The notes under the pieces are model-generated. The model was not told where the DNA came from and did not search any database. It saw only the letters and a list, made by a program, of their open reading frames with translations. Of a DNA stretch of 64,000 bases, positions 270 to 39,440 are shown piece by piece. A program made the position numbers and the translations under genes. Within the stretch, counting starts at the first letter, position 1, and every line of letters begins with the position of its first letter. Source of the DNA: Dehalococcoidia bacterium (GTDB lineage Bacteria > Chloroflexota > Dehalococcoidia > UBA2979); assembly GCA_029247135.1 (NCBI GenBank), contig JAQWLS010000009.1:1863-65862 (forward strand), in the 5' to 3' direction.

Positions 270-2078
270 TTAGGACTTACTTGCCCACTTGAGATAGCCC
301 CATGCATCAGCATCGTAACCACCATTCCACGCAACGTTTGGCGACCTGAATCTATTTCCATTAGTTCGCACAACACAGTTAGACCAAGCCACATCAAGGA
401 ACTTCTTATTCCAAGCTTCCCAGTCTTCAATTTCACCATCTTTAGCTTTCTCGATCAGGTCCATCCACTCGAGCTCGTCCTTAACACCTGGGCGATCTCT
501 TAGTGCGACGCTACCGTCGCCAACTGGAGCATTCATTCGGCCATCATACGAGTCAGCATATAGAACCGTCAGTGCGGGACTTCCCTGCTTAATCCAGTTA
601 CCGAAACCGATCAGCATGTGCTCAAAGGTACCAGTGGTCTGCAGAGAAATCATTTCACTGTACTCACGGTTATTGATCTGTAGTTCAATACCCATCTGGG
701 CTAGATCCTGTTGAATCATCTGTGCCGTAGCTGGAGCATCCAACCTCTCAGGTAGTACATCAGCTTTCAGTACGTTGCCTTCAACACCACCAGCAGCAGA
801 AATAAGCTTCGCAGCCTCAGCAGGGTTATATGCAACTGTATCGAGCTCTGGCACAAAAGCAATAGAACTAGGCTGGAACTGAAGTCGTCCACCCTGATCG
901 AACTCACCAAAGTATTCCTTCTGAATTCGGTCCTGTTGCAGCAGGAGCATAAGACCCTGTCGCACTCGCTTGTCTAAAATATCGGCACGCAGTCGGAATA
1001 CTCGACCACCCATTCCACCGTATGTTTCATGCTCCCAGTCCCCATTGTCCGCAATCGCCTCAGCATGCTCAGGAAGCAAGGTTCCACCTGTGAAGAGGTC
1101 GATATCACCAGCTTCGAATGCGAGTCCTTGCGCACCAGAGTCCGCAAAAATCGTTGTTTCAATCTTATCCAGATATGGACCAGTATCACCCCAGTAATCT
1201 GCATTCTTCGTGAGTTCATAACCCACGTTAGGATCGTAATTACCAAACTTGAAAGGTCCTGTACCGTTCAGAACACCTTCTTTAACCTGCTCGAGGGTGT
1301 TCATATCACCAATATTTGCACCACGGAAAAAGTCATACATATATCCGGTTGGCTTTGACAACCTCACCACGACGGTCTTGTCATCTGGAGTCTCAACAGA
1401 CGTGAAGTTAGCTGACATGAGGTTATACGGGCTTCCTACCACGCCTTCATGCTCACCAGCCATCATTAGTTCATATGACGCCTTTACATCAGCGGCAGTC
1501 ATCGGCTTACCATCATGGAATTGAACGTCTTTATCAATCAATTTGAATATGACCGTAGTACCACCGTCGGTAACTTCCCAGCTCTGCGCAAGACTTGGAT
1601 AAACACTAAAGTCTGCGTCGTACAACTCGTATAAAGGAGCCTTCTGATCACGTGCAAGCTGACGCTTGCCTCTCATCTGTCCCACCTCGACCAATCGGTC
1701 GAATATTCGAGAGTTCTGATTCATGTATGTGTTGTTACCAGCAGTGTTAAACGGCATCCGCACGAAGTTTGGAGTCGAGTTGGTGCCCGCCTTAAGCGTT
1801 CCACCCATCTTGATGCCACTGTCAGTTGCAGAGGTGGTGGCCACCGAAGTTGCAACTACCTGCTGAGTCGCGGCTGCAGTCGCGGCACTACTGCTTGACG
1901 AGCTACTGCTTGACGCACTGCTGCCACCTGAGCTCGAGGCGGATGTAGTTTCATCATCACTGCCACAACCAATCAATGCCGCACCAGCAAGTCCTGCGCC
2001 ACCTAGAGCAGCTCCACGCATCAAACGACGTCTGGAGATACTTCGGCGATTCCAATAATCACTCATATAAACCCTCAA
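270..2078 (-). CDS. ABC transporter substrate-binding protein, family 5 (peptide/nickel type), lipoprotein
   Basis: 602-aa ORF. The N-terminus has a twin-arginine-like signal (SRRRLMRGAALGGAGLAGAALIGC) with a lipobox Cys, followed by a Ser/Ala-rich low-complexity linker. The SBP_bac_5-like body contains WGDTGPYLDKIE and related motifs. It sits downstream of the Dpp-type permeases; the start may be the internal Met at 2063. Confidence 0.8.
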   Translation of the reverse strand: MRVYMSDYWNRRSISRRRLMRGAALGGAGLAGAALIGCGSDDETTSASSSGGSSASSSSSSSSSAATAAATQQVVATSVATTSATDSGIKMGGTLKAGTNSTPNFVRMPFNTAGNNTYMNQNSRIFDRLVEVGQMRGKRQLARDQKAPLYELYDADFSVYPSLAQSWEVTDGGTTVIFKLIDKDVQFHDGKPMTAADVKASYELMMAGEHEGVVGSPYNLMSANFTSVETPDDKTVVVRLSKPTGYMYDFFRGANIGDMNTLEQVKEGVLNGTGPFKFGNYDPNVGYELTKNADYWGDTGPYLDKIETTIFADSGAQGLAFEAGDIDLFTGGTLLPEHAEAIADNGDWEHETYGGMGGRVFRLRADILDKRVRQGLMLLLQQDRIQKEYFGEFDQGGRLQFQPSSIAFVPELDTVAYNPAEAAKLISAAGGVEGNVLKADVLPERLDAPATAQMIQQDLAQMGIELQINNREYSEMISLQTTGTFEHMLIGFGNWIKQGSPALTVLYADSYDGRMNAPVGDGSVALRDRPGVKDELEWMDLIEKAKDGEIEDWEAWNKKFLDVAWSNCVVRTNGNRFRSPNVAWNGGYDADAWGYLKWASKS

Positions 2079-2134
2079 CTTTCTTTTCAGTCCTGATTGT
2101 ATTCAACACTATTTACAAAACGTATCCGATAAAG

Positions 2135-2168
2135 ATACCTAACAGACTTTTGAAGGTCTGTTAGGTAT
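2135..2168. promoter_or_regulatory. Perfect 13-bp stem / 8-nt loop hairpin in the intergenic region between permease copy 2 and the SBP gene
   Basis: Read directly: atACCTAACAGAC-ttttgaag-GTCTGTTAGGTat. A U/A-rich sequence follows on both strands. The half-site ACCTAACAG also occurs at 5224-5232 in the operon promoter region. Confidence 0.6.
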
Positions 2169-2203
2169 ATAACAAAGAATTTATTTGCCTAATTCCCCAA
2201 GGC

Positions 2204-3115
2204 CTAGCTATCTCGTCTTCGAATTGGATCAAGTCTCTCGGCCAACACATCACTCAAAAAATTCAGAGATAACAAAAGTATGGCTATAAGCGCTATCGGG
2301 CCAAGCACGTAGTGAGGTGCGAATCTTGTATACCTACCTCCGTCCAATAGTAGCTGACCTAAGGTGGCATTCGGAGGTGCCGTGCCAAGACCCAAGTAAT
2401 TCAAAGCTGCCATCGTCAACACAGACGCGACCACCGCTAACGGCAACGCTACTGCAAACGCACCAAATGTGTTCACCGAAACATGACGCCATAAAATACG
2501 TCGCTCGGTTGCGCCAAGACACCGAGCAGCCGTCACATAGTCCCGCTCACGCTCACGCAGCACTCCGGCCCGGGCTAACCGTGCCATTTCATCAACACTA
2601 TAAATAGCAATTGCAATTCCAAGTGGCACGACTCCGCGACCTAAGTAATCACCTAAAATTGTGACCACTAAAATCGCAATCAAAATGCCCGGAAACGCGA
2701 GCAGCGTATCTACGCCACGCATGATCAAGATATCAGTTAAGCCGCCTCGCCACCCAGCAAGATAACCGAGCGCAATACCAACTATCCAACCGGCTACGAC
2801 TGCGCCAACTCCAACTATTACAGTCCTTCCCAGGCCGGACGCATTTCGCGCAAGTAAATCACGAGATATATGATCCGTCCCCATTGGGTGTTCCCAAGAA
2901 GGTGATTGGTTTTTTGGCACATTCTCAATCCAATTTGGGTCAGTGCCCCAAAGGAGTGGAACCAATGTGCCAAATAATAATAGAGTTGTAAGTCCAAATA
3001 ATGAGATGAATCCTCTAGGTGTTTTACCGACGGCACGGATCTCTTTTAGGAAAGATTTGAGAGCAGTAGATCGTACCTCAGGCGCAAAAAGCGGATCTCC
3101 TACACTCGCCGACAT
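2204..3115 (-). CDS. ABC transporter permease, DppC/OppC-like, tandem paralog 2
   Basis: 303-aa polytopic membrane protein with the BPD_transp_1 EAA-like region (VDEMARLARAGVLRERERDYVTAARCLGA). It is near-identical over long runs to the adjacent upstream copy. Confidence 0.85.
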   Translation of the reverse strand: MSASVGDPLFAPEVRSTALKSFLKEIRAVGKTPRGFISLFGLTTLLLFGTLVPLLWGTDPNWIENVPKNQSPSWEHPMGTDHISRDLLARNASGLGRTVIVGVGAVVAGWIVGIALGYLAGWRGGLTDILIMRGVDTLLAFPGILIAILVVTILGDYLGRGVVPLGIAIAIYSVDEMARLARAGVLRERERDYVTAARCLGATERRILWRHVSVNTFGAFAVALPLAVVASVLTMAALNYLGLGTAPPNATLGQLLLDGGRYTRFAPHYVLGPIALIAILLLSLNFLSDVLAERLDPIRRRDS

Positions 3116-3207
3116 CCTAGGCTCCTTTTTTTACACCAAGATGAACTCTTAGGCCAAGTCTTACCATTATGTAATCTACGTAGGCCTTAGTTAGCTGGCC
3201 AGTGGCA

Positions 3208-4107
3208 TTAGCCATCTCGTCTTCGAATTGGATCGAGTCTCTCCGACATCACGTCACTCAAAAAATTCAGAGATAACAAAAGTATCGCTAGAAGCGTAAC
3301 CGGACCAAGCACATAGTGAGGCGCAAATCGCATATAGCGACCTCCATCCAGTAGAAGCTGACCTAAGGTGGCATTCGGAGGTGCGGTGCCAAGACCCAGG
3401 TAATTCAAAGCTGCCATCGTCAACACAGAAGCTACTACCGCGAGCGGCAGCGCTACTGCAAACGCGCCAAATGTGTTCACCGACACATGTCGCCATAAGA
3501 TACGTCGCTCAGTCGCACCAAGGCACCGAGCAGCTGTCACATAATCACGCTCACGCTCACGCAGCACTCCGGCCCGGGCGAGCCGTGCCATGCCTGACAC
3601 ATTAAAAATAGCAATGGAGATTCCAAGTGGTATGATCCCGCCTCCCAAAATCGTTAATACTACAATCGCAATCAAAATGCCAGGAAACGCCAGCAGCGTA
3701 TCTACTCCGCGCATGATGAAAATATCGGTTAGACCTCCTCGCCACCCAGCAAGATAGCCAAGTGCTATACCAACTATCCAACCTGAGATCACGGCCCCGA
3801 TTCCGACCACTACTGTTCGCCCCAAACCAGAGGCATTTCGCGCAAGCAAATCACGGGATATATGATCCGTGCCCATTGGGTGTTCCCAAGAAGGTGATTG
3901 ATTTTTTGTCACATTTTCAATCCAATTTGGATCAGCACCCCAGAGCAATGGGACTAGAATCGCAAATAAAAATAAAAGTGATAAGCCAAATAATGAAATA
4001 AATCCTCTAGCTGTCTTGCCAACGGCTCGTATTTCTTTTAGCAGGGCGCTCAGAGTTGACTGAGGTATCTCGGACGCAAACAGAGGATCGACTGTGTTAG
4101 CTGACAT
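3208..4107 (-). CDS. ABC transporter permease, DppC/OppC-like, tandem paralog 1
   Basis: 299-aa ORF. It shares the identical C-terminal roughly 85 aa and the 32-aa run KNQSPSWEHPMGTDHISRDLLARNASGLGRTV with 2204-3115. It differs mainly at the N-terminus and by a 4-aa indel in one TM loop. Confidence 0.85.
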   Translation of the reverse strand: MSANTVDPLFASEIPQSTLSALLKEIRAVGKTARGFISLFGLSLLFLFAILVPLLWGADPNWIENVTKNQSPSWEHPMGTDHISRDLLARNASGLGRTVVVGIGAVISGWIVGIALGYLAGWRGGLTDIFIMRGVDTLLAFPGILIAIVVLTILGGGIIPLGISIAIFNVSGMARLARAGVLRERERDYVTAARCLGATERRILWRHVSVNTFGAFAVALPLAVVASVLTMAALNYLGLGTAPPNATLGQLLLDGGRYMRFAPHYVLGPVTLLAILLLSLNFLSDVMSERLDPIRRRDG

Positions 4108-4108
4108 C

Positions 4109-5074
4109 TTACGCCTCCGCTTTTCCGCCGAGACGAATTCTCGGATCTAGCCCAACGTATAACAGGTCCGTTATTAAATTAACGACCAAAAATATAATAA
4201 CTAGTAGCAAAGTGATGCCCTGCATCATCACATAATCTCGCTCACGCACTGCGCTCACTAATGCACGGCCTACACCCGGCCAGGTAAACACTTGCTCAAT
4301 TACAAGAGTACCCGCCAATACACCCCCTACCTGTAACCCCATAATTGTGACGACGGGAATGAGACTCGGCTTCAAAGCATGTCGAATCATGACGGTACGT
4401 TCACGGAGACCCTTAGCGCGAGCCGTTCGGATGTAATCTTCGGTCAATGTATCTAAAATCGACTGCCGTGTATACCGAGAAATCTGAGCCGCAACAATAC
4501 TACCTAACGCTATCGTAGGAAGTGCCAGATGCTTAAGTGCATCTAACGGATCTTCAGTGAACGGTACCCTCCCAGATGCCGGTAATATCTTAAGTTGAAC
4601 AGCAAAAATCAAAAGATACAGAAGACCCGCGATAAATGACGGAATACCTATGTTGATTCCAGTCCATAAGGAAGCAATATAATCCCACACTCCGCCTCTG
4701 TTCACGGCCGCCAGTATTCCTAATACCACGCCCCACACAAAGCCGTAAGTTAATGCGAATAATGCTAATTCAATCGTTGCCGGGAAAGCACTGTATATGA
4801 TGTCAGCTGCTGGGATACCCTTGTTCATTGAAATACCAAAGTCGCCCTGTATAGCGTTCCCAAGCCAGCTGAAATACTGCACATGAAAGGGGTCATTCAG
4901 ACCCATACGCTCCCGAGCGAGTTCATATGCCTCTTGGCTAGTCTGATTCTCACCACTCGAAGCTAAAAGCGCCGGGTCGCCCGGTATCAGCCTCACGACC
5001 ATAAAAACTAGAAACGATGCCAGGATCATCACCGGTATCATCTGAGTGACTAAACGGTGCACGAAATACTGCAT
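4109..5074 (-). CDS. ABC transporter permease, DppB/OppB-like
   Basis: 321-aa ORF with six predicted TM segments and the EAA-like motif (ARAKGLRERTVMIRHALKPSL). It is the first gene of the minus-strand operon and overlaps the next gene by 1-2 nt. Confidence 0.85.
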   Translation of the reverse strand: MQYFVHRLVTQMIPVMILASFLVFMVVRLIPGDPALLASSGENQTSQEAYELARERMGLNDPFHVQYFSWLGNAIQGDFGISMNKGIPAADIIYSAFPATIELALFALTYGFVWGVVLGILAAVNRGGVWDYIASLWTGINIGIPSFIAGLLYLLIFAVQLKILPASGRVPFTEDPLDALKHLALPTIALGSIVAAQISRYTRQSILDTLTEDYIRTARAKGLRERTVMIRHALKPSLIPVVTIMGLQVGGVLAGTLVIEQVFTWPGVGRALVSAVRERDYVMMQGITLLLVIIFLVVNLITDLLYVGLDPRIRLGGKAEA

Positions 5075-5102
5075 AGCGCCTGAGCTCCATTCTTTAAATT
5101 AA

Positions 5103-5232
5103 CCGTCAATACATTCGCATCGAGCCGTCAATCAGAAGTAAAATTAATCTCGATAAAAGATACAGCATCTGTTTATCATGCTGCATAGAATGTAGGTCTT
5201 GTAGCGCGGACGTTCTGTTATCTACCTAACAG
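5103..5232. promoter_or_regulatory. Divergent promoter region with candidate operator repeats
   Basis: Direct repeat CCGTCAAT x2 (5103-5110, 5125-5132). Inverted repeat CAGCAT-n9-ATGCTG (5163-5183). Everted repeat CTGTTA-tct-ACCTAACAG (5215-5232) that shares the half-site of the 2135-2168 hairpin. The region is AT-rich and lies between the divergent permease and CoA-transferase starts. Confidence 0.4.
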
Positions 5233-5292
5233 TCACCACATTAATTTCATGAAACTATAATGACGATCATTAGAACGATGTAAAAGGTATTT

Positions 5293-7689
5293 ATGAGTCA
5301 CGCATTTTCGGACATTCGCGTATTAGATCTATCGACCAATTTATCAGGTGCATTCGCAGCTCGATTTTTTGGAGACTTCGGAGCCGAAGTAATACTTGCT
5401 GAAAATGAGGCAGGACACGCACTCCGCAAGTCCAAAGTACTCCATGCCTATGCCAATTGGAATAAAAAATCAATCCAGATCCAAGACGATGATGAGCTCG
5501 ATGCCTTGATAAAGAGCAGCGATATCATCATCACAACTGAAATTAATAAAAAAGATGAGCTCTTCGCTCGAGTCAGCGAGAAAAGACTTCGTAGCTCGGT
5601 TCACCTATCTGTCACCCCGCATGGTCTAGATGGCAATCTTGCGGGAGTCCCTGGGAATGGCCTAACGGCTTCAGCACGAACAGGGTTCTCACATATTAAC
5701 GTGTATGAAAATGAGCCACCTCTGCAATTACCAGTCAATCTGACGGGTTTCATTGCTGGAGTATGTGGATTTATCACATCTGCGGCGGTTGCACTACAAA
5801 TGAGAAGTTCGGGTCTTGGCGATCTAGTCGATGTAAGCGAAGTTGAATCTCTTTCTCTCGCGTCTGCACCATGGGCCATTCAAGCCATCTTTGAAAATCG
5901 AGGATGGGCGAGAGGCGTACTCGGTGGCAAAGCACGAGGTATCCCCGGACCTCTCTGGGAAGCCAAGGATGGCCTTATTAATTTTGGCTTGGGTGATTTT
6001 AGGAATTGGACTGAGTCCATGAGAGTACTAGGCGTGGAAGAATATGCTGAAAATACCGATCTCATTCCAGATATAGGACGTCATGGCAATCCACAACTTC
6101 TAGAAGTTGTGGCGGCCGTTACTAGAACTGTGCCAAGCAAGAATCGTAAAGATCTATTCCTTGCGCTTTGCAAATTGCGCTCAATCACGGGAATGGTTCA
6201 GGATATGTCGGATATCGAATCGTGCGATCATCTAAATGCGCGAGACTATTTTCGCACCACGAATATCGATGACAAATTGGTCAAATTTCCGGGTCCATCA
6301 GCGCACTTATCCCCTCTCAAGTGGGAGCTACGATCTGATGCACCTTCGCTTGATCAAGATCGTGATCAAATAGATATCAAGCGAAACTCTGTCGCAATCA
6401 AAAATCCTAGTTCAATAGCGATGTCATCGGATGGACCACTAGCTGGAAAAAAAGTGCTCGCATTCACGCACGCCTGGTCAGGCACGTTCGCAACTGAGCT
6501 GTTAGGCCTCCTGGGAGCTGACGTGGTTCAAATTGAGGCCCCACACCGGGTGGATGTTTGGAGAAGAGTAAGTAATAAGGTGCCTGAAGGTGTGCGAAAT
6601 ACCGATATCGATCAACACTTTCTGAATACGCAAGGTCTGTATAATTCAGCGAACTTAAATAAACGTGCAATAACACTGGACATGAGAACGCCGGAAGGAC
6701 AGGAAATATTTTGGCAGCTCGTACCCCATTTTGACATAGTTATGGACAATTTCACACCGCAAATTTTGCCGCGGTGGGGAATTACACTGGAAACGCTCGC
6801 TGAAAAACGCCCTGGTATCGTATTTGCGTCATTATCTGCTTACGGCGCTACCGGACCATATCAAGAATTTCCCGGAAATGGCGGCACGACTGAACCTATG
6901 TCCGGCCTGTCGTCAATTCATGGCTATGAAGGTGATCTGGGGATGAACACGGGAGGAATGATTCCCGATCCAATATCCGGATATTTCACAATTGCTTCAG
7001 TTATAGCCGCGCTACATGAGTCGAGCAAAACCGGAGAAGCGCAACGCATCGAAGGTTCGATGCTCGAATCTCTCACAGCAATTGTCGGCGATGCACTAGG
7101 TGAATATCAGCTCAGCGGTGAGGTTCCCAGACCGCATGGCAACAAACACCCTGAAATTGCCCCGCACGGTGTGTACCAAACCAAAAATAGTGAATGGATT
7201 GCGATTTCAGCCGATAATGAAATCGCCTGGGATAACCTCGCCAAGCTATTAGGACTTACTGAAGATTCACAATTCAAAAGCCGGCAACAACGAAAAGAAA
7301 ATGAATCTCTTCTAAACGAAATCATAGGTAAATGGGCCCAAAATCAATCAGCACAAGGCATGGAAAACCAACTAACTGAATTAGGCGTATGTGCTGCACG
7401 GGTAGCTGAACCTTACAAGATATATAGCGAACCTGATGCTAATTTCCTCTCGAGAGATTTTTTATCGTATATTAAGCATCCAGAGACAGGAGTCAACGTA
7501 CTCCCCGCACGTGCCTGGAAGTTTGAAAGTATTAAATCATCTGAAGTTCGTCCGGCCCCCTGTGTCGGTCAACATAGTAAAGAAGTGTTGCAGGAATATT
7601 TAAATATCACCGATGAGAAATATCAAGAACTGATTGAGAACACCGTAACCGGAACAATATACGACTACGAAAGGTACAAACAAATATGA
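5293..7689 (+). CDS. Fused tandem family-III CoA-transferase (two CaiB/BaiF domains in one 798-aa polypeptide)
   Basis: Domain 1 starts with the canonical MSHAFSDIRVLDLSTNLSGAFAARFFGDFGAEVI. Domain 2 restarts at about aa 385 with LAGKKVLAFTHAWSGTFATELLGLLGADVVQIEAP. The stop overlaps the next start (ATGA at 7686-7689). Confidence 0.8.
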   Translation: MSHAFSDIRVLDLSTNLSGAFAARFFGDFGAEVILAENEAGHALRKSKVLHAYANWNKKSIQIQDDDELDALIKSSDIIITTEINKKDELFARVSEKRLRSSVHLSVTPHGLDGNLAGVPGNGLTASARTGFSHINVYENEPPLQLPVNLTGFIAGVCGFITSAAVALQMRSSGLGDLVDVSEVESLSLASAPWAIQAIFENRGWARGVLGGKARGIPGPLWEAKDGLINFGLGDFRNWTESMRVLGVEEYAENTDLIPDIGRHGNPQLLEVVAAVTRTVPSKNRKDLFLALCKLRSITGMVQDMSDIESCDHLNARDYFRTTNIDDKLVKFPGPSAHLSPLKWELRSDAPSLDQDRDQIDIKRNSVAIKNPSSIAMSSDGPLAGKKVLAFTHAWSGTFATELLGLLGADVVQIEAPHRVDVWRRVSNKVPEGVRNTDIDQHFLNTQGLYNSANLNKRAITLDMRTPEGQEIFWQLVPHFDIVMDNFTPQILPRWGITLETLAEKRPGIVFASLSAYGATGPYQEFPGNGGTTEPMSGLSSIHGYEGDLGMNTGGMIPDPISGYFTIASVIAALHESSKTGEAQRIEGSMLESLTAIVGDALGEYQLSGEVPRPHGNKHPEIAPHGVYQTKNSEWIAISADNEIAWDNLAKLLGLTEDSQFKSRQQRKENESLLNEIIGKWAQNQSAQGMENQLTELGVCAARVAEPYKIYSEPDANFLSRDFLSYIKHPETGVNVLPARAWKFESIKSSEVRPAPCVGQHSKEVLQEYLNITDEKYQELIENTVTGTIYDYERYKQI

Positions 7690-10600
7690 GCTTCCAAAAA
7701 ATATTGATCGCTAACCGTGGTGAAATTGCGATACGCATAATGCGAGCCGCAAATGATCTTGGAATTCAAACAGTAGCTATATATTCAGAGGATGATTCGA
7801 CTTCATTACATAGAACTATTGCTGACGAGAGTTTTGCTCTTTCCGGTAGAGGTGTGCCGGCATATCTCGATATGGACACAATTATTGATGGTGCAAAAGA
7901 AATGAATTGTGATGCCGTCCACCCAGGTTACGGATTCTTAGCTGAGAATTCACAGTTTGCAAAAAAATGTGCCGAACAAAATCTAACTTTCATCGGACCC
8001 GAGGTTGAACATCTTGAATTGTTTGGAGATAAAGGACGTGCACGAGCGGCCGCCACAGCCGCTGGAGTCCCAATTCTTAAGGGTATTGACCATTCTGTTT
8101 CGCTTGAAGAGGCACAAGAATTTTACTCAAGTCTTGGGGCAGATGCGGGCATGATGATCAAGGCTGTTGCTGGTGGCGGAGGACGAGGATCGCGAGCTGT
8201 AACCGATGCACTTGAAATAGAAGAAGCCTATAAAAGATGCCAGTCGGAGGCAACCAGCGCCTTTGGTAATGGAGAACTCTATGTGGAAGAATTCATTCAA
8301 CAGGCAAGACATATTGAGGTTCAAATTCTTGGAGATAAAAACGGGAATATCATCAACCTTGGCGAACGTGAATGCAGTGTCCAACGACGATATCAAAAAA
8401 TAGTTGAAATTGCGCCTGCTCCCCATCTTCCCGAGCGGCTGCGTGACGACATTATCGAAGCCGCCCAACGTCTTGCCCAAAGTGTAAATTATTCGAATCT
8501 CGGCACCTTTGAATTTCTCGTGAACACCGACGCGTCTGACGGTGGCGATCCATTTTCATTCATTGAAGCAAATGCTCGGCTCCAGGTCGAACATACCGTC
8601 ACAGAGGCTGTGACCGGTGTAGATATTGTGCAAACCCAAATTGAACTAGCTGGCGGAACACTACTTGCAGAGCTCGGATTAGATGACCCGGATATCGGAG
8701 TACCTCGAGGGTTTGCTATCCAAGCTCGTATAAATATGGAGACACTCGGTGTGGACGGAACCGTGCGCCCAGCAGGAGGAACTCTCCGTTCGTACGATGC
8801 ACCAAATGGCCCAGGTGTCCGAACCGATGGGTTTGGATATGCGGGTTACACAACCAGTCCAATGTTCGATTCATTACTTGCAAAAGTAATTACACATTCA
8901 CCGTCTAATAAATTTAAGACTGCTGTACAGCGATCACTTCGTGCGCTTTCTGAATTTCGAATAGAAGGCGTAGCCACAAATATCCCCTTCTTGATGAATG
9001 TTCTAACAAACACGGACTTCATTGATGGATCGGTACATACACGATGGGTCGATGAAAAAATAGCTGACCTCGCAATAGCAGATACTGAGAGCCAACAAAA
9101 ACGCTGGATTGAAAGTGCAGAGGCACCAGTCCCTGTGGCCGCAGGTCAACAGGCAAGCCCGCTCACTGGGACCGCTCCAGTCATGGTAGACACATCAGAC
9201 CCTTTGGCACTTTTTAGTTATGACCGTCAGGTGAAAGAAGCTGAAAAAGTTGAGCTCCCGGCAGAGGATCCGGGAGCTAGTCTGATAGGCCCTGATGGAT
9301 CTATTGGAGTCGGCGCTCCAATTCAAGGAACGATCATTCAAATCTCCGTCAGCGAAGGAGATTCGATACGCATGGGCCAGGAAATGCTGATTATGGAAGC
9401 CATGAAAATGGAGCACGTAATTAAGGCTGATGTAAGCGGAATCGTTAAAAAAATCAATGTTGAACCGGGAGACATCATTGTCGAGGGTCATCCATTAATT
9501 TTTGTCGAAGAAGGTGAATTGGACGAAGCCAGTTTCGAAGAGGAAGAAGCCATAGACCTTGATTACATCCGACCTGATCTAGAAGAAGCCTACGCTAGGC
9601 ACGCATTCACCCTCGATGAGAATAGACCCGAAGCTGTAGCAAAACGATATGGACGTGGCTATCGAATGCCGCGTGAAAATATCGCGCAACTGGTTGATGA
9701 AGGAACATTCAAAGAATATGGACCGTTAGTGGTAGCACGGCAACACCAACGATTTAGCAGCGAGGAACTCAGAAAAAATACTCCGGCAGATGGTCTCGTA
9801 TCAGGTATCGGCTCAGTGAATGGAAAACACTTTTCCCCTGAGCAGGCTCGGACAATGGTTATATCCTATGACTACACCGTACTTGCTGGGACGCAAGGTG
9901 GGCGTAACCACTACAAACAAGATCGTATGTTCGAGCTCGCACAGAGATTTAAAATTCCACTAGTCTTTTTCACTGAAGGTGGGGGTGGACGTCCAGGGGA
10001 TGATCGGATCGGGCCTGGAGTGGCGTTCGATACCCATACATTCACACAATTCTCTCAGCTTAGTGGCTGGATTCCACTCGTAGGAATCACGAATGGGCGG
10101 TGCTTTGCAGGCAATACTGCACTCTTGGCCTGTTGTGATGTAATCATTGCGACTGAAGGATCTACGGTTGCTATGGGCGGGCCAGCGATGGTTGAAAGTG
10201 GCGGCCTAGGTGTATACACACCAGAAGAACTCGGTCCGATGTCATTCCAAGTGCCAAATGGAGTGGTTGACATTCTGGTTAAAGATGAAGAAGAAGCTGT
10301 GGATGTTGCTAAAAAATACCTATCGTATTTCCAAGGCCCGATAGATGAATGGGAGGCTCCCGATCAGCGGCCTCTTAGACATATTGTGCCAGAAAACCGA
10401 AAACAACTATATGACATGCGTGAAGTAATAAACACGATCGCCGATAAAGATTCAGTACTTGAAATACGGGAAAAGTTCGGTATCGGTATTATCACGGCCT
10501 TCATGCGAATTGAGGGTAAACCCATGGCGGTGATAGCTAATAATCCTCATCATATCGCTGGCGCAATTGACTCAGATGGAGCTGACAAGGGTGCTCGTTT

Positions 10601-11123
10601 TGTTCAGCTATGTGACGCATTTGATATTCCGATTTTAAGTTTGATGGATTGTCCAGGAATGATGGTAGGTCCGGATGTTGAATCTACTGCATTGGTCCGG
10701 CACTGCGTCCGTATGTTTAATGCCGGTGCAAATCTTACAACGCCGATGTTCCTCACAGTTGTTCGCAAGGCCTACGGACTAGGTGTACAAGCTATGTGTG
10801 GTGCTAGCTCCTTTGTAGGATTCTTCTCAGTCGCATGGCCCACAGCAGAATTTGCGGGTATGGCAATTGAAGGGTCTGTAAAACTCGGCTATCGCAAGGA
10901 GCTGGAAGCAATAGAAGATCCAGCTGAACGACTAGCTGAATATCAAGATCGAGTAGATCGTGCATACGAAAGCGCAAAGGCTGTTAACGCTAGCGCTGGT
11001 TATGGCATTGATGACGTAATCGATCCGGCAGATACACGATCGTGGCTTGTCATGGGACTAAATAGTGTCCCCACGCCGCCCGAGCGTACGGAAAAGAAAT
11101 ATCCCTTTATTGATACCTGGTAG
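7686..11123 (+). CDS. Single-chain biotin-dependent acyl-CoA carboxylase (biotin carboxylase + BCCP + carboxyltransferase, 1145 aa)
   Basis: The N-terminal BC domain has MSFQKILIANRGEIAIRIMRAA, the GGGGRG loop and the ATP-grasp. The biotinyl domain has the EAMKM motif (about nt 9395-9410). The C-terminal roughly 520 aa is an AccD/PccB-like carboxyltransferase (GGGGRPGDD..., CPGMMVGP...). The domain order is as in long-chain acyl-CoA carboxylase (LCC)-type enzymes. Confidence 0.85.
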   Translation: MSFQKILIANRGEIAIRIMRAANDLGIQTVAIYSEDDSTSLHRTIADESFALSGRGVPAYLDMDTIIDGAKEMNCDAVHPGYGFLAENSQFAKKCAEQNLTFIGPEVEHLELFGDKGRARAAATAAGVPILKGIDHSVSLEEAQEFYSSLGADAGMMIKAVAGGGGRGSRAVTDALEIEEAYKRCQSEATSAFGNGELYVEEFIQQARHIEVQILGDKNGNIINLGERECSVQRRYQKIVEIAPAPHLPERLRDDIIEAAQRLAQSVNYSNLGTFEFLVNTDASDGGDPFSFIEANARLQVEHTVTEAVTGVDIVQTQIELAGGTLLAELGLDDPDIGVPRGFAIQARINMETLGVDGTVRPAGGTLRSYDAPNGPGVRTDGFGYAGYTTSPMFDSLLAKVITHSPSNKFKTAVQRSLRALSEFRIEGVATNIPFLMNVLTNTDFIDGSVHTRWVDEKIADLAIADTESQQKRWIESAEAPVPVAAGQQASPLTGTAPVMVDTSDPLALFSYDRQVKEAEKVELPAEDPGASLIGPDGSIGVGAPIQGTIIQISVSEGDSIRMGQEMLIMEAMKMEHVIKADVSGIVKKINVEPGDIIVEGHPLIFVEEGELDEASFEEEEAIDLDYIRPDLEEAYARHAFTLDENRPEAVAKRYGRGYRMPRENIAQLVDEGTFKEYGPLVVARQHQRFSSEELRKNTPADGLVSGIGSVNGKHFSPEQARTMVISYDYTVLAGTQGGRNHYKQDRMFELAQRFKIPLVFFTEGGGGRPGDDRIGPGVAFDTHTFTQFSQLSGWIPLVGITNGRCFAGNTALLACCDVIIATEGSTVAMGGPAMVESGGLGVYTPEELGPMSFQVPNGVVDILVKDEEEAVDVAKKYLSYFQGPIDEWEAPDQRPLRHIVPENRKQLYDMREVINTIADKDSVLEIREKFGIGIITAFMRIEGKPMAVIANNPHHIAGAIDSDGADKGARFVQLCDAFDIPILSLMDCPGMMVGPDVESTALVRHCVRMFNAGANLTTPMFLTVVRKAYGLGVQAMCGASSFVGFFSVAWPTAEFAGMAIEGSVKLGYRKELEAIEDPAERLAEYQDRVDRAYESAKAVNASAGYGIDDVIDPADTRSWLVMGLNSVPTPPERTEKKYPFIDTW

Positions 11124-11142: not shown

Positions 11143-12744
11143 TTAATCAAGGTATTGATAGGCTGGAATCGTAAGAAAATCGACGAACTCGTCGCTGAGA
11201 ACCAATCGATCTAATATTTCCGCCGCGTCATCAAAATGCTGATTTTGTTCGATATTGAGAATCGCAAGCTCTTGAGTCCGAAGCTCTGAATATAAATCCG
11301 AAGTAATAATTCGGCCATCATCGAGCGGCACAGCATGAATAATCCACTGCCAAAGCTGCGCGCGACTGATTTCAGCGGTTGCAGCATCCTCCATCAGATT
11401 ATTAATCGCAGCCGCCCCGTTGCCACTTAACCATTGATTTATATATTGCAGAGCTACCGAAATATTGAGCCGAACCCCCGCTTCAGTTGTGTCCCCCTCA
11501 GTGAGATTCGCTCCGCTCAGCGCTGCAGCATCAGCCAACACATCATCGCGTTGCCTATCCTTCTGATTATCGTTCTCCCCAAGTACCTGTTGAAACGAGG
11601 CTCGCGCAGTTGGTTCAAGATCAGGGTGTGCTATCCAAGTACCATCAAATCCATTTTGTGACTCTCTGTCTTTATCGGCCTTCACTGCCGCGAGTGCCAT
11701 CTCGTTCAACTCTGCATCTCTTCGGCTAGGAATAAATGCAGACATCCCGCCCATCGCATGAGCTCCGCGCCGATGGCAAGTCTTTACAAGTAAATCTGTA
11801 TATGCGCTCATAAACGGAACAGTCATCCCAATTTGAGCTCGGTCTGGAAGGGCAAACTCACGACGATTTCTAAATCTCTTAATCACACTAAAAATATAAT
11901 CCCAGCGACCCGCATTTAAGCCTGAGATATGCTCTCGTAACTCAAAAAGAATTTCGTCCATCTCATAGGCAGCCGTGATAGTTTCAATCAAAACAGTAGC
12001 CCGTATTGAACCACGACTGATACCTAATTTATCCTGACTGAAATTGAATACACTGTTCCATAACCTAGCCTCTAAATGCCCTTCTAACTTGGCTAAATAG
12101 AAATACGGACCAGTGTTTCGTGCGAGTCGCTCTTCAGCATTGTGAAATAAATAAAGTCCCGCATCGAAAAGTGCCGCCGAACATGGATTCCCATCTACGA
12201 ACAGATGCTTTTCCTCTAAGTGCCAACCACGAGGTCGAACAATGAGCGTGACGTCATCCTTAATCAGTTTGTAAGACTTACCGTTAGGTTCGTCCAAAAT
12301 CATGTCCCCACGAACTGCATCAGCAAGATTAATCTGAGCTTCAACCACATTTTCCCAAGTGGGTGAAAGTGAATCCTCCAGATCTGCCATAAACGCGTCT
12401 GCAGCAGAATTAAGTGCGTTAATCATCATTTTTCTATCGCACGGGCCTGTGATCTCAACCCAACGCTTCTCTAAATCTTCAGGGCAATCAGCTACAACCC
12501 AATCACTCTCACGAATACCAATAGTCTCACTCAAAAAATCAGGTAACTCACCAGTGTCAAACTCATGCTGACGTGTAATACGCGCCTCCAAAAGCTCAAG
12601 CCGAGCACTATTGAACTCGCGTTGCAAAGATGCAATGAATTTCAGGGCATCAACACTTAATATATTCTTCCATTTATCAGGAAAAATACCTCTAATCTCA
12701 ATTCCTTCAGCTATTTCTTGAATCAATGGACTTGAATTGGACAT
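11143..12744 (-). CDS. aceB: Malate synthase A
   Basis: 533-aa ORF of the length and architecture of malate synthase A, with conserved catalytic-region motifs. It is convergent with the carboxylase gene. Confidence 0.8.
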
Positions 12745-12847
12745 ATAGAACCTCGTGTACTTAAAGGGCAGATAATTTCAACCCGACAGAGAGTAACAAA
12801 TTTTACAAAGGCTGTCAGTTAGATAACTCGATTACCGAATAAACTAC

Positions 12848-13120
12848 TTAACCTCCACCAAGTGGCGGCACCAAATAGATATCACTATCAGCAGCAACGG
12901 TTTCTGTTAACCCCCTCGAATCCAGAATCGAACCATCGATGGCAACAGCAAGATCTGATCTCAAACCATCTGAGGTAATAATCTGTGCAGTCAGTTCCGG
13001 ACAGATAGCTTCAAGATTTCTGAAAACTTCCCTCAAAGTAGTTCCTGTCACCTCCACAGAATCACGCATTTCACAAAAAGTTCGTAACGCGTTAGGAAGG
13101 TGAATAATCGGCATAAACAC
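12848..13120 (-). CDS. MoaD/ThiS-like ubiquitin-fold sulfur-carrier protein (C-terminal GG)
   Basis: 90-aa ORF ending ...LVPPLGGG immediately before the stop. It lies 10 nt downstream of the XDH-family gene on the same strand. Confidence 0.65.
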   Translation of the reverse strand: MFMPIIHLPNALRTFCEMRDSVEVTGTTLREVFRNLEAICPELTAQIITSDGLRSDLAVAIDGSILDSRGLTETVAADSDIYLVPPLGGG

Positions 13121-13130
13121 TCAAAAATTC

Positions 13131-15446
13131 TTAGGACTCAAGCTCAGCTAACTCTCTGAGAATACTCTCAGGATTGGCCGGAAGGCTACTGACCCGAATA
13201 CCAACAGCATCATAGATTGCGTTCGCAATAGCTGCTAATGGAGGGACAATCGGCACCTCTCCGACTCCTCGAACTCCAAACGGATGTCCGGGATTTGGAA
13301 CTTCAACCAGCACCGTGTCGATCGCTGGAAGGTCATTTGCAACCGGCATTCGATAATCAAGAAAAGATGAATTAGCCATCGACCCATCATCGTTATATAC
13401 ATACTCCTCGTTCAGTGCCATACCTATACCCTGCACAGCGCCACCTTGTATCTGGCCCTCAACATACGCGGGATGAATTGCTCGCCCCACATCCTGAATA
13501 GCCGTATATCTAAGCACCGTCACCTTGCCAGTATCTCTATCGACATGGACATCAGCGATATGTGCGCCAAAACACGCGCCGACTTTACCAACATTCGTGG
13601 ATACGAGATCTGCCCGTCCCTGTACCATTCCACCAGTTGCTGGAAGTTTTGCGGCCGCATCCTTAAAGGTCATCACAAGATCGCCTGGTCCATGCAAAGA
13701 CGCATCTATCGGGCTGTAATTTACATCATCAACTGATACTTCCCATATTTTTGCGATCCGTTCCTCGAGCTGGTTGCTGATATCCACGGCAGCTTGGTAG
13801 ACCGCCCAGCCGGTGGCAAAAGTCGTCCGACTCCCACCAGTATTACCGGTATAACCGATTGTGTCGGTATCCCCCACAAGGGAATTAATATCTTCGTAGT
13901 TAATGCCAAGAGTGTCCGCAAATTGCATTGCCAGTGAAGCTCTCTGACCTCCGATATCCACTGAGCCCGTAATGAGCGTTACCTTGCCATCCTCATGAAC
14001 ATTGGCATATGCGCTTGACTCGCCCCCGCCATTTTGCCAAAAACCCATAGCGACCCCACGACCCACGTCTTTTTGAGTTATTTCCGCACGATAATGTGGG
14101 TGTTCACTTGTGGTGGTAATTACCTCACGAGATCCTACGGATCCATGCGTTGCACCATCACTTCTGCGGTCGCCTTCAACAGCGGCATTCATATCACGAA
14201 GCTCCATGGGATCAATATCAAGCATCTCAGCCAATTCATCCAACACAGCCTCAACCGCAAATTCTGAAGCAGGTGCGCCTGGAGCACGATATGCAGCCGT
14301 CTTCGGTCGATTGAGCACGATATCCAATCCAAGTATTCGCTGATGGGGAACAACATACGGACCTAGGGCACATCGTGCTCCGCCAGCCACAGGCGATCCC
14401 GGATAGGCGCCTGCCTCGTACTCTAATCGAATGTCGGCTGCTACTATTTTACCTTCACGCGTAGCACCGATTTTCACAAACGATCGGGTACCAGATGTGG
14501 GTCCTGTGGCCTCCAACACCTCAGTTCTATTCATGGTTACTTGGACAGGTCGACCAGATTTACGCGATAAAAGGGCCGCTATTGGTTCTAAATAGACAAC
14601 GGTCTTACCTCCGAAGCCTCCACCAATTTCAGCAGGAATAACTCGCAAGTCACCTAAACTTATACCAAGCACCCGACTCACATTCTGTCTGATGCCAAAG
14701 GCACCTTGCGTACTTGTCCAGAGTGTTATCTTTCCGTCCTGATTCCAAATCGCTGTGGCATTGTGGGTCTCTATATATCCCTGATGACTCATCGCGGTCT
14801 CGTATACTCGTTCCAGCACCACTTCAGCTTGAGAAAATCCCTCCTCAATATCACCGAATCCCATTTCAACGGTTCTGGCGATATTTGACGGCCTGCCATC
14901 GACTGGTTGAAATAAATCTTCTACAAGAGAATCAAGTCCATCATCGTGAAGAATTGGAGCGTCAGGTGCGAGAGCGTCATCAATAGTCACAACTGGCGGT
15001 AGTACTTCGTACTCTACCTCAATCAGATCAAGTGCATCCTCAGCTATATGCACGTCGGTAGCAGCTATCGCAGCAACCGGATGCCCCTTGAACAGGACCT
15101 TACGGCGCGCCATCAGCCTTTCAATGTCCCACTGTGCCGGCATTGGTCCACGCAAAGTCTGTAATATGGCTTCAACAGGCTCGGGGAAATCGTCACTGGT
15201 TACAACGGCCAGCACACCTGGAAGCGCCAGGGCTTTCGAAACATCAATATTCTTAATAATTGCATGCGCATGGGGGCTTCGCTTGACTCGGCCGACAATC
15301 ATATTTGGTAATCGCACGTCCGCACCGTATATGGCTCGACCCGTGACTTTATCAATTCCATCCGGTCGCACCGTATTTGTTCCTACTGACGAAATTTTTG
15401 GCTCTAACATAGTCATCTGCATTACTTCCTTAAAATACGATGGCAT
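13131..15446 (-). CDS. Xanthine dehydrogenase/aldehyde oxidase family molybdopterin-binding large subunit (CoxL-like), orphan
   Basis: 771-aa ORF with Ald_Xan_dh_C and C2-type motifs (GGGFGGK, EIGGGFGGKT, GQGxxT region). No FeS or FAD subunit genes are adjacent. Confidence 0.8.
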   Translation of the reverse strand: MPSYFKEVMQMTMLEPKISSVGTNTVRPDGIDKVTGRAIYGADVRLPNMIVGRVKRSPHAHAIIKNIDVSKALALPGVLAVVTSDDFPEPVEAILQTLRGPMPAQWDIERLMARRKVLFKGHPVAAIAATDVHIAEDALDLIEVEYEVLPPVVTIDDALAPDAPILHDDGLDSLVEDLFQPVDGRPSNIARTVEMGFGDIEEGFSQAEVVLERVYETAMSHQGYIETHNATAIWNQDGKITLWTSTQGAFGIRQNVSRVLGISLGDLRVIPAEIGGGFGGKTVVYLEPIAALLSRKSGRPVQVTMNRTEVLEATGPTSGTRSFVKIGATREGKIVAADIRLEYEAGAYPGSPVAGGARCALGPYVVPHQRILGLDIVLNRPKTAAYRAPGAPASEFAVEAVLDELAEMLDIDPMELRDMNAAVEGDRRSDGATHGSVGSREVITTTSEHPHYRAEITQKDVGRGVAMGFWQNGGGESSAYANVHEDGKVTLITGSVDIGGQRASLAMQFADTLGINYEDINSLVGDTDTIGYTGNTGGSRTTFATGWAVYQAAVDISNQLEERIAKIWEVSVDDVNYSPIDASLHGPGDLVMTFKDAAAKLPATGGMVQGRADLVSTNVGKVGACFGAHIADVHVDRDTGKVTVLRYTAIQDVGRAIHPAYVEGQIQGGAVQGIGMALNEEYVYNDDGSMANSSFLDYRMPVANDLPAIDTVLVEVPNPGHPFGVRGVGEVPIVPPLAAIANAIYDAVGIRVSSLPANPESILRELAELES

Positions 15447-15527
15447 CTCTGAATTTGTTTAATACACTTGGAATCATAGCAAATCATTTAATTTATTAGA
15501 GAGATTAGAAAATAATTTACTGTGGGA

Positions 15528-16487
15528 CTAAACCTGTTTCGAACAACGAAACCCGACGTTACTAGCTGTGCTATCAGGAGAAACGCCAACCCGAGCAGCT
15601 GGCCGATACCTTGCACAATAGCTGGCATGACACAAAAAAGATCCGCCTTTTTGTACTCTTAAGTTCCCTGTAGCTGGGCCCGTGGGGTCAACTGCAGGAG
15701 ATAGGCTTGAGTCTGCAAACCCGAACCAGTCAGCACACCACTCCCAAACATTACCGGTCATATTATGAAGACCATACCCATTTTTCGGAAAATGATCAGA
15801 GGGACAGGTCCCATACCACCCATCGTCTTCCGTATTACGTGTCGGGAAAACACCCTGCCACGTGTTAGATAGATACTTACCATCCGGATTTAACTCATCA
15901 CCCCACGGAAATAAAGCTCCATCTAATCCACCTCGCGCAGCGTATTCCCAAGAAGCTTCCGAAGGTAATTCTTTCCCTAACCAACTCGCATAGGCCACTG
16001 CATCAAACCAACTGACGTGCACGACAGGATGCTCCATGCGATCCCTCAGAGTGCTGTGTGGACCCTCAGGATGCTGCCAGGTAGCCTTAAAAACCTGTCG
16101 CCACCAAGGTGCATCGGCCACCCCTCGCGTGGGCTCGAAGTCATCAGGAAGCAATCCAGCAAAAACAAATGACCAATCTCGTTGTTCTGCCGTCGTGATA
16201 TATCCAGTCGTATCGATAAACGACATAAAATCACCGTTCGTCACGGTATAGGTATCCAATAAAAATTCCGAAACGGAAACAGACCGAACTGGACCTTCTC
16301 CATCAGCCGCATAAGACATGGGATCCTCTGAGCCCATACGAAACACTCCGCCAGATATTAGTGCCATCTGAGTTCGTGAATCTTCGGATGAACTTGAGCG
16401 ATTAATCACCTGCTGACTAGGTGAAATAATCTGATCGAAAACGCCTTCATCAAGATTTGGCACACAACATGGACACTTTTCAGCCAT
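15528..16487 (-). CDS. Formylglycine-generating enzyme (FGE/SUMF1) family protein
   Basis: The C-terminal FGE-sulfatase signature (GGSFLCHASYCARYRPAARVG, RVIRGGSW-like core) is present, with an N-terminal CPCC. No sulfatase gene is adjacent. Confidence 0.75.
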   Translation of the reverse strand: MAEKCPCCVPNLDEGVFDQIISPSQQVINRSSSSEDSRTQMALISGGVFRMGSEDPMSYAADGEGPVRSVSVSEFLLDTYTVTNGDFMSFIDTTGYITTAEQRDWSFVFAGLLPDDFEPTRGVADAPWWRQVFKATWQHPEGPHSTLRDRMEHPVVHVSWFDAVAYASWLGKELPSEASWEYAARGGLDGALFPWGDELNPDGKYLSNTWQGVFPTRNTEDDGWYGTCPSDHFPKNGYGLHNMTGNVWEWCADWFGFADSSLSPAVDPTGPATGNLRVQKGGSFLCHASYCARYRPAARVGVSPDSTASNVGFRCSKQV

Positions 16488-38012: not shown

Positions 38013-39440
38013 ATGAACAGGACGGATTTTGAACGAGGCGTACGACTTGCTGGATTGCAGGTTCCAGACTCGGATATCAAGCTTATCGGTAGTGATCCCG
38101 TCTACTACGCCCCTTTCCACCTTGGAGAGGGGGCCGCGATAGCTCACGCATTGATAGGGTCACAAATTGACCAGATATGGCAAGAGCAGGGACATAAGGC
38201 TCAGCAAATTGCGGTCGATGTCCGACACGCTGCTGCGTCACTCAATTCTTACCGGTGGCTGGAAATTAAGAATAAGTTAGCAACTGATAGTCTACCCGCA
38301 GCGAGAAATATGACCCGAATCTTTAGGTGCAAAGATGGCAGGTTCATCCACCTACATAAATCATTTCGCGACGGCCCATCTATTGCAGTCGAACTAGGAA
38401 TAGAGCAAGAGGCTGATGTTTCAACTATTGCTGAAGCGGTCTCACGCCGCAACTCTTTTGAGTTAGAGGCTGCACTAATTCGACAAGATCTCTCAGGAGC
38501 CGTCGTTAGAAATCCATCCGAATGGGTAAAACATCCGCAAGGAAAAGAGTTGCTTCGCAGACCTGTAGTTGAAATTACAAAAATTGGTGATGCCCCTCCT
38601 GAACCGATCAAAATTGGCTCGCGACCCCTTTCAGATCTGCGGGTCCTTGATCTCACGCGTGTATTAGCTGGCCCGACAAGCGCTCGTACATTAGCTGAAC
38701 ATGGCGCCAATGTTGTACATGTAGCATCGCCACACTTGCCTACAATCGACCTCTTTGAAATGGACACCGGCCATGGGAAACGTCAGATACACATTGACTT
38801 AAATACGGAAAATGACGTCGATACACTTACTGCAATGGCAAAGCACGCCGATGTCTTTAGTCAAGGTTTTCGCAAAGGTGCGCTAGATAGGCGTGGATTT
38901 GGCCCGCAGCAACTGGCTGCGTTGCGACCCGGCATCATCTATGTATCTGAAAATTGTTACGGACATCACGGACCATGGGCTAATCGGCCAGGCTGGGAAC
39001 AATTTGCACAAACAGTTTCTGGAGTTGCTGAACTTCAAGGTCAAATGAGTCCGTTGAGTCCGGACAGTGAGCACTCGATCGCTGCCGGTAGCGATCCTCA
39101 TACGCCTCGACTAGCGCCTGCGGCCATGAATGATTACGTAACTGCATCATTCGCCACCTATGGTGTGCTCGAAGCGCTACAACGACGAGCTGAAGAAGGC
39201 GGCTCATGGCACGTACAAGTCTCGCTTACCCAAACATCAATGTGGTTTACACGCCTAGGATTACTGCAAGATGTTAGCCAAGAACAAAACATAGGAGCGG
39301 TAGATGATTTTCTCGAGACCCATGACACCCCCTACGGTGAAATGCTGCATCTCGCCCCTGTACTACAAATGTCTGACACCCAGCCATATTGGGCCTTTGG
39401 TACCAGACCATTAGGGACTGACATAGCTGAATGGATCTAA
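38013..39440 (+). CDS. Family-III CoA-transferase (CaiB/BaiF)
   Basis: The LSDLRVLDLTRVLAGPTSARTLAEHGANVVHV motif is present. 475 aa. Confidence 0.8.
   Translation: MNRTDFERGVRLAGLQVPDSDIKLIGSDPVYYAPFHLGEGAAIAHALIGSQIDQIWQEQGHKAQQIAVDVRHAAASLNSYRWLEIKNKLATDSLPAARNMTRIFRCKDGRFIHLHKSFRDGPSIAVELGIEQEADVSTIAEAVSRRNSFELEAALIRQDLSGAVVRNPSEWVKHPQGKELLRRPVVEITKIGDAPPEPIKIGSRPLSDLRVLDLTRVLAGPTSARTLAEHGANVVHVASPHLPTIDLFEMDTGHGKRQIHIDLNTENDVDTLTAMAKHADVFSQGFRKGALDRRGFGPQQLAALRPGIIYVSENCYGHHGPWANRPGWEQFAQTVSGVAELQGQMSPLSPDSEHSIAAGSDPHTPRLAPAAMNDYVTASFATYGVLEALQRRAEEGGSWHVQVSLTQTSMWFTRLGLLQDVSQEQNIGAVDDFLETHDTPYGEMLHLAPVLQMSDTQPYWAFGTRPLGTDIAEWI

Follow-up and report, generated by a model that had tools for sequence, protein, structure and literature searches.

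Family-III CoA-transferases use a single Asp-containing site for donor and acceptor alike (PMC9196870). Frc/YfdW, CaiB, YfdE and SUGCT are symmetric interlocked homodimers with two equivalent sites. The benzylsuccinate CoA-transferase BbsEF is made of two diverged chains, and we count SmtAB among such split two-subunit systems as well. A further layout is found in DddD, the dimethylsulfoniopropionate (DMSP) CoA-transferase/lyase, a class III CoA-transferase of about 93 kDa (PMC12309256) with two tandem CaiB domains in one chain (PMC7174347). We analyzed a stretch of 64,000 nucleotides from a Dehalococcoidia bacterium (contig JAQWLS010000009.1, positions 1,863 to 65,862; hereafter the window), in which a gene for a fused family-III CoA-transferase is followed by one for a single-chain biotin carboxylase of the LCC type (carboxylase of long-chain acyl-CoA). 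The fused layout is already known from DddD, and the protein is an uncharacterised member of a known architecture. The main new point is the conserved, translationally coupled pairing of this uncharacterised subfamily of fused transferases with an LCC-type carboxylase. With moderate confidence, from sequence, structural model and gene context, we predict that the protein is a covalent alpha-beta family-III CoA-transferase activating an acid for the carboxylase encoded downstream.

The transferase gene is an uninterrupted open reading frame (ORF) of 798 amino acids (aa). Scanned alone, both halves match PF02515 (CoA_transf_3), the profile of the CaiB/BaiF/Frc family, over the whole domain. The profile has 366 positions and a cut-off of 23.3 bits. 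The N-half matches at aa 6-356 (profile positions 2-365, 132.7 bits, E 2.3e-38). For the C-half the match covers aa 383-762 (positions 1-366, 292 bits, E 7.6e-87). Between the halves, identity is about 25%. An earlier sequence-only reading of this DNA had proposed two complete family-III domains in a single polypeptide, the second restarting near aa 385 with its own LxxKKVLxF…G motif. Both parts of that proposal hold, as each half spans nearly the entire profile and the second domain starts with L383-A-G-K-K-V-L-A-F391 followed by G397.

The conserved catalytic Asp of the family, equivalent to Asp169 of Frc/CaiB, is present only in the C-half. That half aligns over its full length with BbsF (9fn0_B, E 2.4e-49), SUGCT, YfdE and a Frc-like enzyme, with Asp559 at their catalytic Asp. 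By residue count in that alignment, Asp559 shares its column with BbsF Asp178; the title of PDB entry 9fol, 'D178-CoA adduct', names this residue. The best PDB match of the N-half is the BbsE chain 9fn0_A, and Gly152 stands in the column of BbsE Tyr171. Asp is found in the Asp559 column of all 119 family members, while position 152 is Gly in 114 of the 119 and Asp in only one. When the query was aligned with 74 divergent fused representatives, whose identity to the N-half is 24-47%, all 75 sequences had Asp in the C-half column and three of the 75 had it in the N-half column. A joint alignment gave the same pattern for split pairs from Aromatoleum aromaticum EbN1 plasmid 2 and Variovorax and for distant fused proteins from cultured Bosea and Variovorax: G, S, Y or F stands in the first partner or N-half, and D in the second. 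N-type partners keep the N-terminal Rossmann and N-x-(N/S/G)-K motifs and lack the (D/E)N(F/M) motif. Likewise, the N-half of the window protein retains its Rossmann and N-x-N-K motifs and has lost (D/E)NF.

These results do not support the earlier suggestion that the halves diverged to bind donor and acceptor as two working sites, since Asp is present only in the C-half and family III uses one Asp site (PMC9196870). That reading had proposed checking each half for the catalytic Asp, and the answer differs between them: invariant in the C-half, replaced by Gly in the N-half. It had also held that a half without its active-site region would be a mere scaffold. The N-half does lack both the Asp and the (D/E)NF motif, but it is full length and its mean majority-residue frequency is 0.71 compared with 0.74 for the C-half. 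Because conservation is nearly equal and about 35 positions within the N-half are invariant in the family alignment, the N-half, judged by its alignment, is not a mere scaffold and is under selection while the linker is free to vary. Its small domain carries the family signature GDF(H/R)NWxxAM, which also served as the search pattern in our genome scan, and the invariant residues R215, G227, W239, M243 and R263. The least conserved part of the N-half is the stretch matching the DNF motif (0.44-0.51). As split two-subunit enzymes show the same order of genes and the same succession of a partner without Asp and a partner with it, the alignments indicate that the fused protein is a covalently joined alpha-beta pseudo-heterodimer, for which one active site is predicted.

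In a rival model, which takes up the earlier idea of two working halves, the N-half would use a non-canonical residue. The full length and strong conservation of the N-half and its retained Rossmann and N-x-N-K motifs are in keeping with that model, as are the nearly invariant Glu141 and the Glu found at the N-half column in part of the divergent fused set. Set against them are the Gly at the nucleophile position in the family and the loss of (D/E)NF from what is now the most variable region of the N-half. BbsE, too, lacks an Asp in the canonical column, the CoA adduct in the PDB title being on the BbsF residue. We consider catalysis by both halves highly improbable. Glu141 was tried as a replacement nucleophile and rejected, as an acidic residue occupies the same column in catalytic halves too. 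Glu stands at the N-half catalytic-Asp column in 15 of the 75 divergent fused sequences; some fused subfamilies might keep a second, Glu-based site, or the alignment might be shifted there by a few residues.

Searched against about 5.8 billion protein clusters, the protein gave 606 matches. Among the top 120 of these, 118 have lengths of 780-860 aa and full-length alignments at 46-93% identity, and they represent the same single ORF. A scan of species-representative genomes recovered this ORF in metagenome-assembled genomes (MAGs) of Dehalococcoidia, Pseudomonadales/Azotimanducaceae, other Gammaproteobacteria, Alphaproteobacteria, Planctomycetia, Nitrospirales and Chloroflexia. Many of the genomes are closed long-read chromosomes, including complete MAG chromosomes. 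The nearest relatives, with 90-93% identity, come from marine Chloroflexota/Dehalococcoidia MAGs, which makes the host a marine bacterium of the Dehalococcoidia, probably SAR202-like. Of 149 further representative clusters, the best ones listed for the N-half, 74 are 700-900 aa long. On these lengths, the fused architecture, which carries no annotation other than 'CoA transferase', is common and diverse.

The sequence-only reading had warned that a frameshift might have joined two real genes. Split family-III pairs with a 4-bp overlap are known elsewhere, and a run of seven A residues (6446-6452) lies close to the domain junction at about nucleotide 6445, so an assembly or sequencing artefact fusing two adjacent genes had to be weighed. 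The A7 run is bordered in a single frame by invariant residues, G381-P382-L383 upstream and V388/L389 downstream. The linker is a coding stretch of 25 residues with no stop/start overlap, variable in sequence (mean majority-residue frequency 0.29 in the 119-member family alignment). Closed long-read chromosomes have the same fusion, and so do 118 clusters with identities as low as 46%. Within the reach of sequence comparison, these observations exclude the artefact and the fused ORF is real; we give the artefact practically no weight.

AlphaFold2, run on the whole chain with a 119-sequence alignment, returned a mean pLDDT of 94.8 and a pTM of 0.95. Confidence at this level implies, for the model, a fixed arrangement of both halves in one compact body. 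Residues 361-386 have no regular secondary structure in it. Foldseek placed BbsF at the top (TM-score 0.93, target-normalised), followed by SUGCT, Frc and YfdE, and BbsE was also matched (0.84). Neither the PDB sequence searches nor the Foldseek structure searches turned up a solved chain of about 800 residues. We infer from the model that the two halves interlock within the chain. The idea that a covalent tandem would form an obligate pseudo-heterodimer is borne out to this extent: the N-half is nearest to BbsE, the C-half is nearest to BbsF, they follow the order of the split pairs and AlphaFold2 predicts one compact unit.

Features of the window discussed here. Positions count from the first nucleotide of the window.
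Feature	Position	Strand	Basis or remark
Fused family-III CoA-transferase gene (alpha-like N-half, linker, beta-like C-half)	5293..7689	+	ORF list and translation, two PF02515 matches
N-half, aa 1-356, BbsE-like, without nucleophile	5293..6360	+	Pfam (132.7 bits), PDB match, motif alignment
Gly152 codon GGT, at the Asp-nucleophile column of catalytic family-III enzymes	5746..5748	+	Alignment to SUGCT and between halves, codon check
Inter-domain linker, aa 357-381	6361..6435	+	Conservation minimum of the whole protein
C-half, aa 382-798, BbsF-like catalytic domain with DNF motif and Asp nucleophile	6436..7686	+	Pfam (292 bits)
Asp559 codon GAT, predicted catalytic nucleophile	6967..6969	+	Alignment to BbsF Asp178, SUGCT, YfdE and Frc-like enzyme, codon check
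Single-chain biotin carboxylase (BC-BCCP-CT), 1145 aa, LCC homologue	7686..11123	+	Pfam, PDB 4rcn
Biotin-attachment Lys574 codon in EAMKME motif of carboxylase	9405..9407	+	Motif search and codon check
Divergent intergenic region, 218 bp, between ABC-transporter genes and transferase	5075..5292	.	Sequence
Genes of an ABC transporter, one for a family-5 solute-binding protein and three of permease type (two paralogous)	270..5074	-	Pfam
Malate synthase, molybdenum hydroxylase (xanthine-dehydrogenase family) large subunit, FGE-sulfatase-domain protein	11143..16487	-	Convergent to cassette
475-aa ORF with partial family-III CoA-transferase large domain	38013..39440	+	Pfam and PDB matches

The carboxylase downstream has all the marks of the LCC type: the Pfam domains BC, BCCP and CT follow one another in a single chain of about 1100 aa, which carries a biotinyl-lysine motif and is homologous to PDB entry 4rcn, 'long-chain acyl-CoA carboxylase', its best known match (1046 bits). 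The stop codon of the transferase overlaps the carboxylase start in an ATGA at 7686-7689. To determine how general the linkage is, we counted related loci in which the fused-transferase gene is followed by at least 3.5 kb of sequence (n=72). The carboxylase lies directly downstream on the same strand in 29 of them, seven times with an identical 4-bp overlap; 10 further loci have one within 10 kb. All close relatives having downstream sequence possess the pair, which occurs across Dehalococcoidia, Gammaproteobacteria, Alphaproteobacteria, Planctomycetia and Anaerolineae. The carboxylase is the only conserved neighbour across 33 cassette loci, and ORF clustering of 85 loci found no other broadly conserved neighbour.

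Both genes also occur in multiple copies. At L001 (14412-21254), L015, L034, L043 and L045, two or three paralogous LCC-type carboxylase genes stand side by side or accompany the transferase-linked one. At least two fused family-III transferases are encoded within 10 kb at L003 (2121-4523 and 10001-12445), L020, L038, L039 and L043. The extra fused copy at L003, L018, L020 and L034 is only 23-27% identical to the window protein, which shows that paralogy within the fused architecture is old.

The original LCC paper (Tran et al. 2015) is said to have left the physiological substrates of LCC enzymes unknown. We inspected eight LCC-like carboxylase loci on plasmids or chromids of cultured bacteria (L088-L095). 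In six of the eight, from Tistrella, Paracoccus, Deinococcus radiodurans, Rhodococcus opacus PD630, Pseudosulfitobacter and Acuticoccus, an AMP-binding acyl-CoA ligase gene adjoins the carboxylase gene. The two overlap by 4 bp in D. radiodurans and are 2 bp apart in R. opacus and 3 bp apart in Tistrella. The Haematobacter locus has a fused family-III transferase of 757 aa (28% identity) in the ligase slot, with an ABC transporter of the family-5 solute-binding protein type nearby. In turn, an AMP-binding acyl-CoA ligase lies within 10 kb in none of the 85 fused-transferase loci. Transferase-linked carboxylases are 64-99% identical to that of the window, compared with 44-52% for ligase-linked ones. 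Given the shared slot beside LCC-type carboxylases and the lack of a ligase in the 85 loci, the simplest reading, by analogy, is that the transferase is an ATP-independent alternative for making the acyl-CoA substrate of the carboxylase. Ligase-LCC adjacency may itself help to find the physiological substrates of LCC enzymes.

The mechanism we propose for the window protein would be as follows. A BbsE-like subunit without a nucleophile is fused N-terminally to a BbsF-like catalytic subunit, and the two halves would fold into one intramolecular pseudo-dimer. Its single active site would combine the Rossmann domain of the C-half (Asp559, DNF motif) with the small domain of the N-half, the latter being expected from the known geometry of family III. 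The mirror site, formed by the N-half large domain and the C-half small domain, would be catalytically dead, as the nucleophile is missing and the region equivalent to DNF is the least conserved of the N-half. By the mechanism of the family, Asp559 would attack the donor acyl-CoA, giving anhydride and thioester intermediates, and CoA would then pass to a free carboxylic acid. Gene context suggests that the resulting acyl-CoA would be the substrate of the translationally coupled LCC-type carboxylase. The transferase may thus do without ATP what the AMP-binding acyl-CoA ligase does beside LCC-type carboxylases elsewhere.

Several points weigh against this proposal. In 33 of the 72 related loci no carboxylase gene was found within 10 kb of the fused gene; the pairing is for this reason a property of the subfamily and not of the fused architecture. 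At the remaining one of the eight loci from cultured bacteria, the LCC gene of Pseudomonas aeruginosa adjoins neither a ligase nor a transferase gene. Two chains may form a domain-swapped dimer instead of pairing their halves intramolecularly. Conservation is very high in the N-terminal Rossmann region of the N-half (0.85-0.87 for aa 21-60) and could reflect continued binding of a nucleotide or CoA for some other purpose. Finally, adjacency leaves the order of the reactions unfixed, and the transferase could act on the carboxylated product.

If the transferase did act after the carboxylase, it could move CoA within the dicarboxylyl-CoA, as Mct and ThnP do, or use the product as CoA donor for the next acid. 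Net, the recycling variant would convert acid, bicarbonate and ATP to a dicarboxylate. Family III includes intramolecular CoA-transferases (PMC9196870; ThnP, PMC11659651). In favour, too, the pair is translationally coupled and has no other CoA-metabolising gene in consistent linkage, nor a ligase within 10 kb to supply the first acyl-CoA. This order of reactions is, however, purely inferential, and the equivalence of the slot with that of the AMP-binding ligases speaks for simple activation upstream of the carboxylase. In its recycling version, action after the carboxylase agrees with our main proposal instead of opposing it. We regard action after the carboxylase as unlikely. It is likewise unlikely, in our estimate, that transferase and carboxylase form a self-contained acid-carboxylating module in which CoA is recycled from the product to the next acid and one ATP drives the conversion of acid and bicarbonate to dicarboxylate. 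Were such a module real, it would be a route for branched or recalcitrant carboxylic acids of dissolved organic matter in SAR202-type Chloroflexota and marine Gammaproteobacteria, and would also point to the physiological substrates of LCC enzymes.

We also examined the other genes around the cassette. The 218-bp region upstream of the transferase gene probably holds one or more promoters, and AAAGG stands 7-11 nucleotides before the transferase ATG. A promoter and terminator scan returned no more sites than shuffled sequence. In the 218-bp region it returned one weak promoter-like match per strand, which is no evidence of function since shuffled sequence gave more. No gene for a transporter ATPase is visible between the divergent ABC-transporter genes and the edge of the window. 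The same transporter clusters adjoin the cassette only in a Chloroflexota subset (L005-7, L012, L027, L034), and an association with the cassette is possible. In a subset of Gammaproteobacteria, large uncharacterised ORFs and FG-GAP-repeat and TPR-like genes accompany the pair. Neither the ABC transporter nor these genes give a clue to the substrate. Malate synthase and molybdenum hydroxylase were rejected as pathway partners because they occur in only four loci (at most four per gene cluster), all from close relatives. The FGE-sulfatase-domain protein beside them is likewise shared with the closest relatives only. Of the family-III large domain, the 475-aa ORF further downstream has just the N-terminal part, matching profile positions 1-217 at its aa 206-427, and its PDB matches all lie at chain residues of about 1-280. 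Its leading 200 or so residues have no detectable similarity to aa 571-798, the small-domain and C-terminal part of the fused protein. This ORF may be a rearranged or truncated relative.

In both fused and split family-III enzymes the second partner always has the Asp and the first almost never does. This rule lets annotators stop counting fused family-III proteins as double enzymes. The cassette is encoded in abundant uncultured marine lineages, among them SAR202-like Dehalococcoidia and Pseudomonadales/Azotimanducaceae. In SAR202, the expansion of this enzyme group has been connected with how refractory dissolved organic matter is turned over (PMC5395668). A limited literature search gave no paper that treats fused family-III enzymes as a class, Rv1866 or the pairing of a CoA-transferase with an LCC.

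Compared by description only, DddD is like the fused protein in being a single chain of about 800-840 aa with two tandem CaiB-type domains from marine bacteria. Alcolombri et al. 2014 reportedly found the essential Asp only in the C-terminal domain of DddD. The ddd operon includes genes for a LysR-family regulator and a BCCT-family transporter, with dehydrogenase genes lying downstream. Beside the fused transferase, the scanned genes encode an ABC transporter, the LCC-type carboxylase, malate synthase and molybdenum hydroxylase, and neither a BCCT-type transporter nor an alcohol/aldehyde dehydrogenase is among their products. DddD converts DMSP to 3-hydroxypropionyl-CoA and dimethyl sulfide, and a DddD-type bifunctional enzyme would transfer CoA and then eliminate a leaving group. 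The window protein shares the two-CaiB architecture of such an enzyme (PMC7174347; PMC12309256). A subset of SAR202 CoA-transferases has DddD as best Swiss-Prot match, and Landry et al. suggested possible lyase functions for them (PMC5395668). However, that match may merely reflect DddD being the sole curated fused member, and an NCBIfam scan had no DddD model among its matches. The lack of ddd-type transporter and dehydrogenase genes among the scanned neighbours argues against DddD orthology, as does the carboxylase being the only widely conserved neighbour. We consider a DddD-type function very unlikely. Unlike DddD, the fused protein pairs with an LCC-type carboxylase, and there is no indication of a lyase function.

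With Frc/YfdW, CaiB, YfdE and SUGCT the fused protein shares the fold and the Asp-based mechanism; SUGCT and YfdE both align with its C-half along the full length, and the Asp is kept. It differs from these homodimers in having both 'subunits' in one chain and one predicted site. BbsEF, too, consists of two diverged family-III chains, BbsE being nearest to the N-half and BbsF to the C-half, with a nucleophile only in the BbsF-type partner (Asp178 corresponding to Asp559, and BbsE Tyr171 to Gly152). In split pairs of the BbsEF type the gene order, alpha then beta, is that of the halves in the fused protein. The subunits of BbsEF are separate, whereas here a single ORF, shared by 118 clusters, encodes both partners and a linker of about 25 residues between them. 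Identity to BbsEF is low, about 30% for the C-half by Foldseek and 18% in the 9fn0_A alignment. The context differs too, with a biotin carboxylase here instead of beta-oxidation (bbs) or a UbiD-decarboxylase operon. On EbN1 plasmid 2, two overlapping CoA-transferase genes, which we take to encode a phthalate-type transferase, lie beside UbiD/UbiX genes. Like the ligase-linked LCC systems, the cassette has an acyl-CoA-forming enzyme adjoining an LCC-type carboxylase, the activating enzyme here being predicted to be a CoA-transferase in place of an ATP-dependent ligase.

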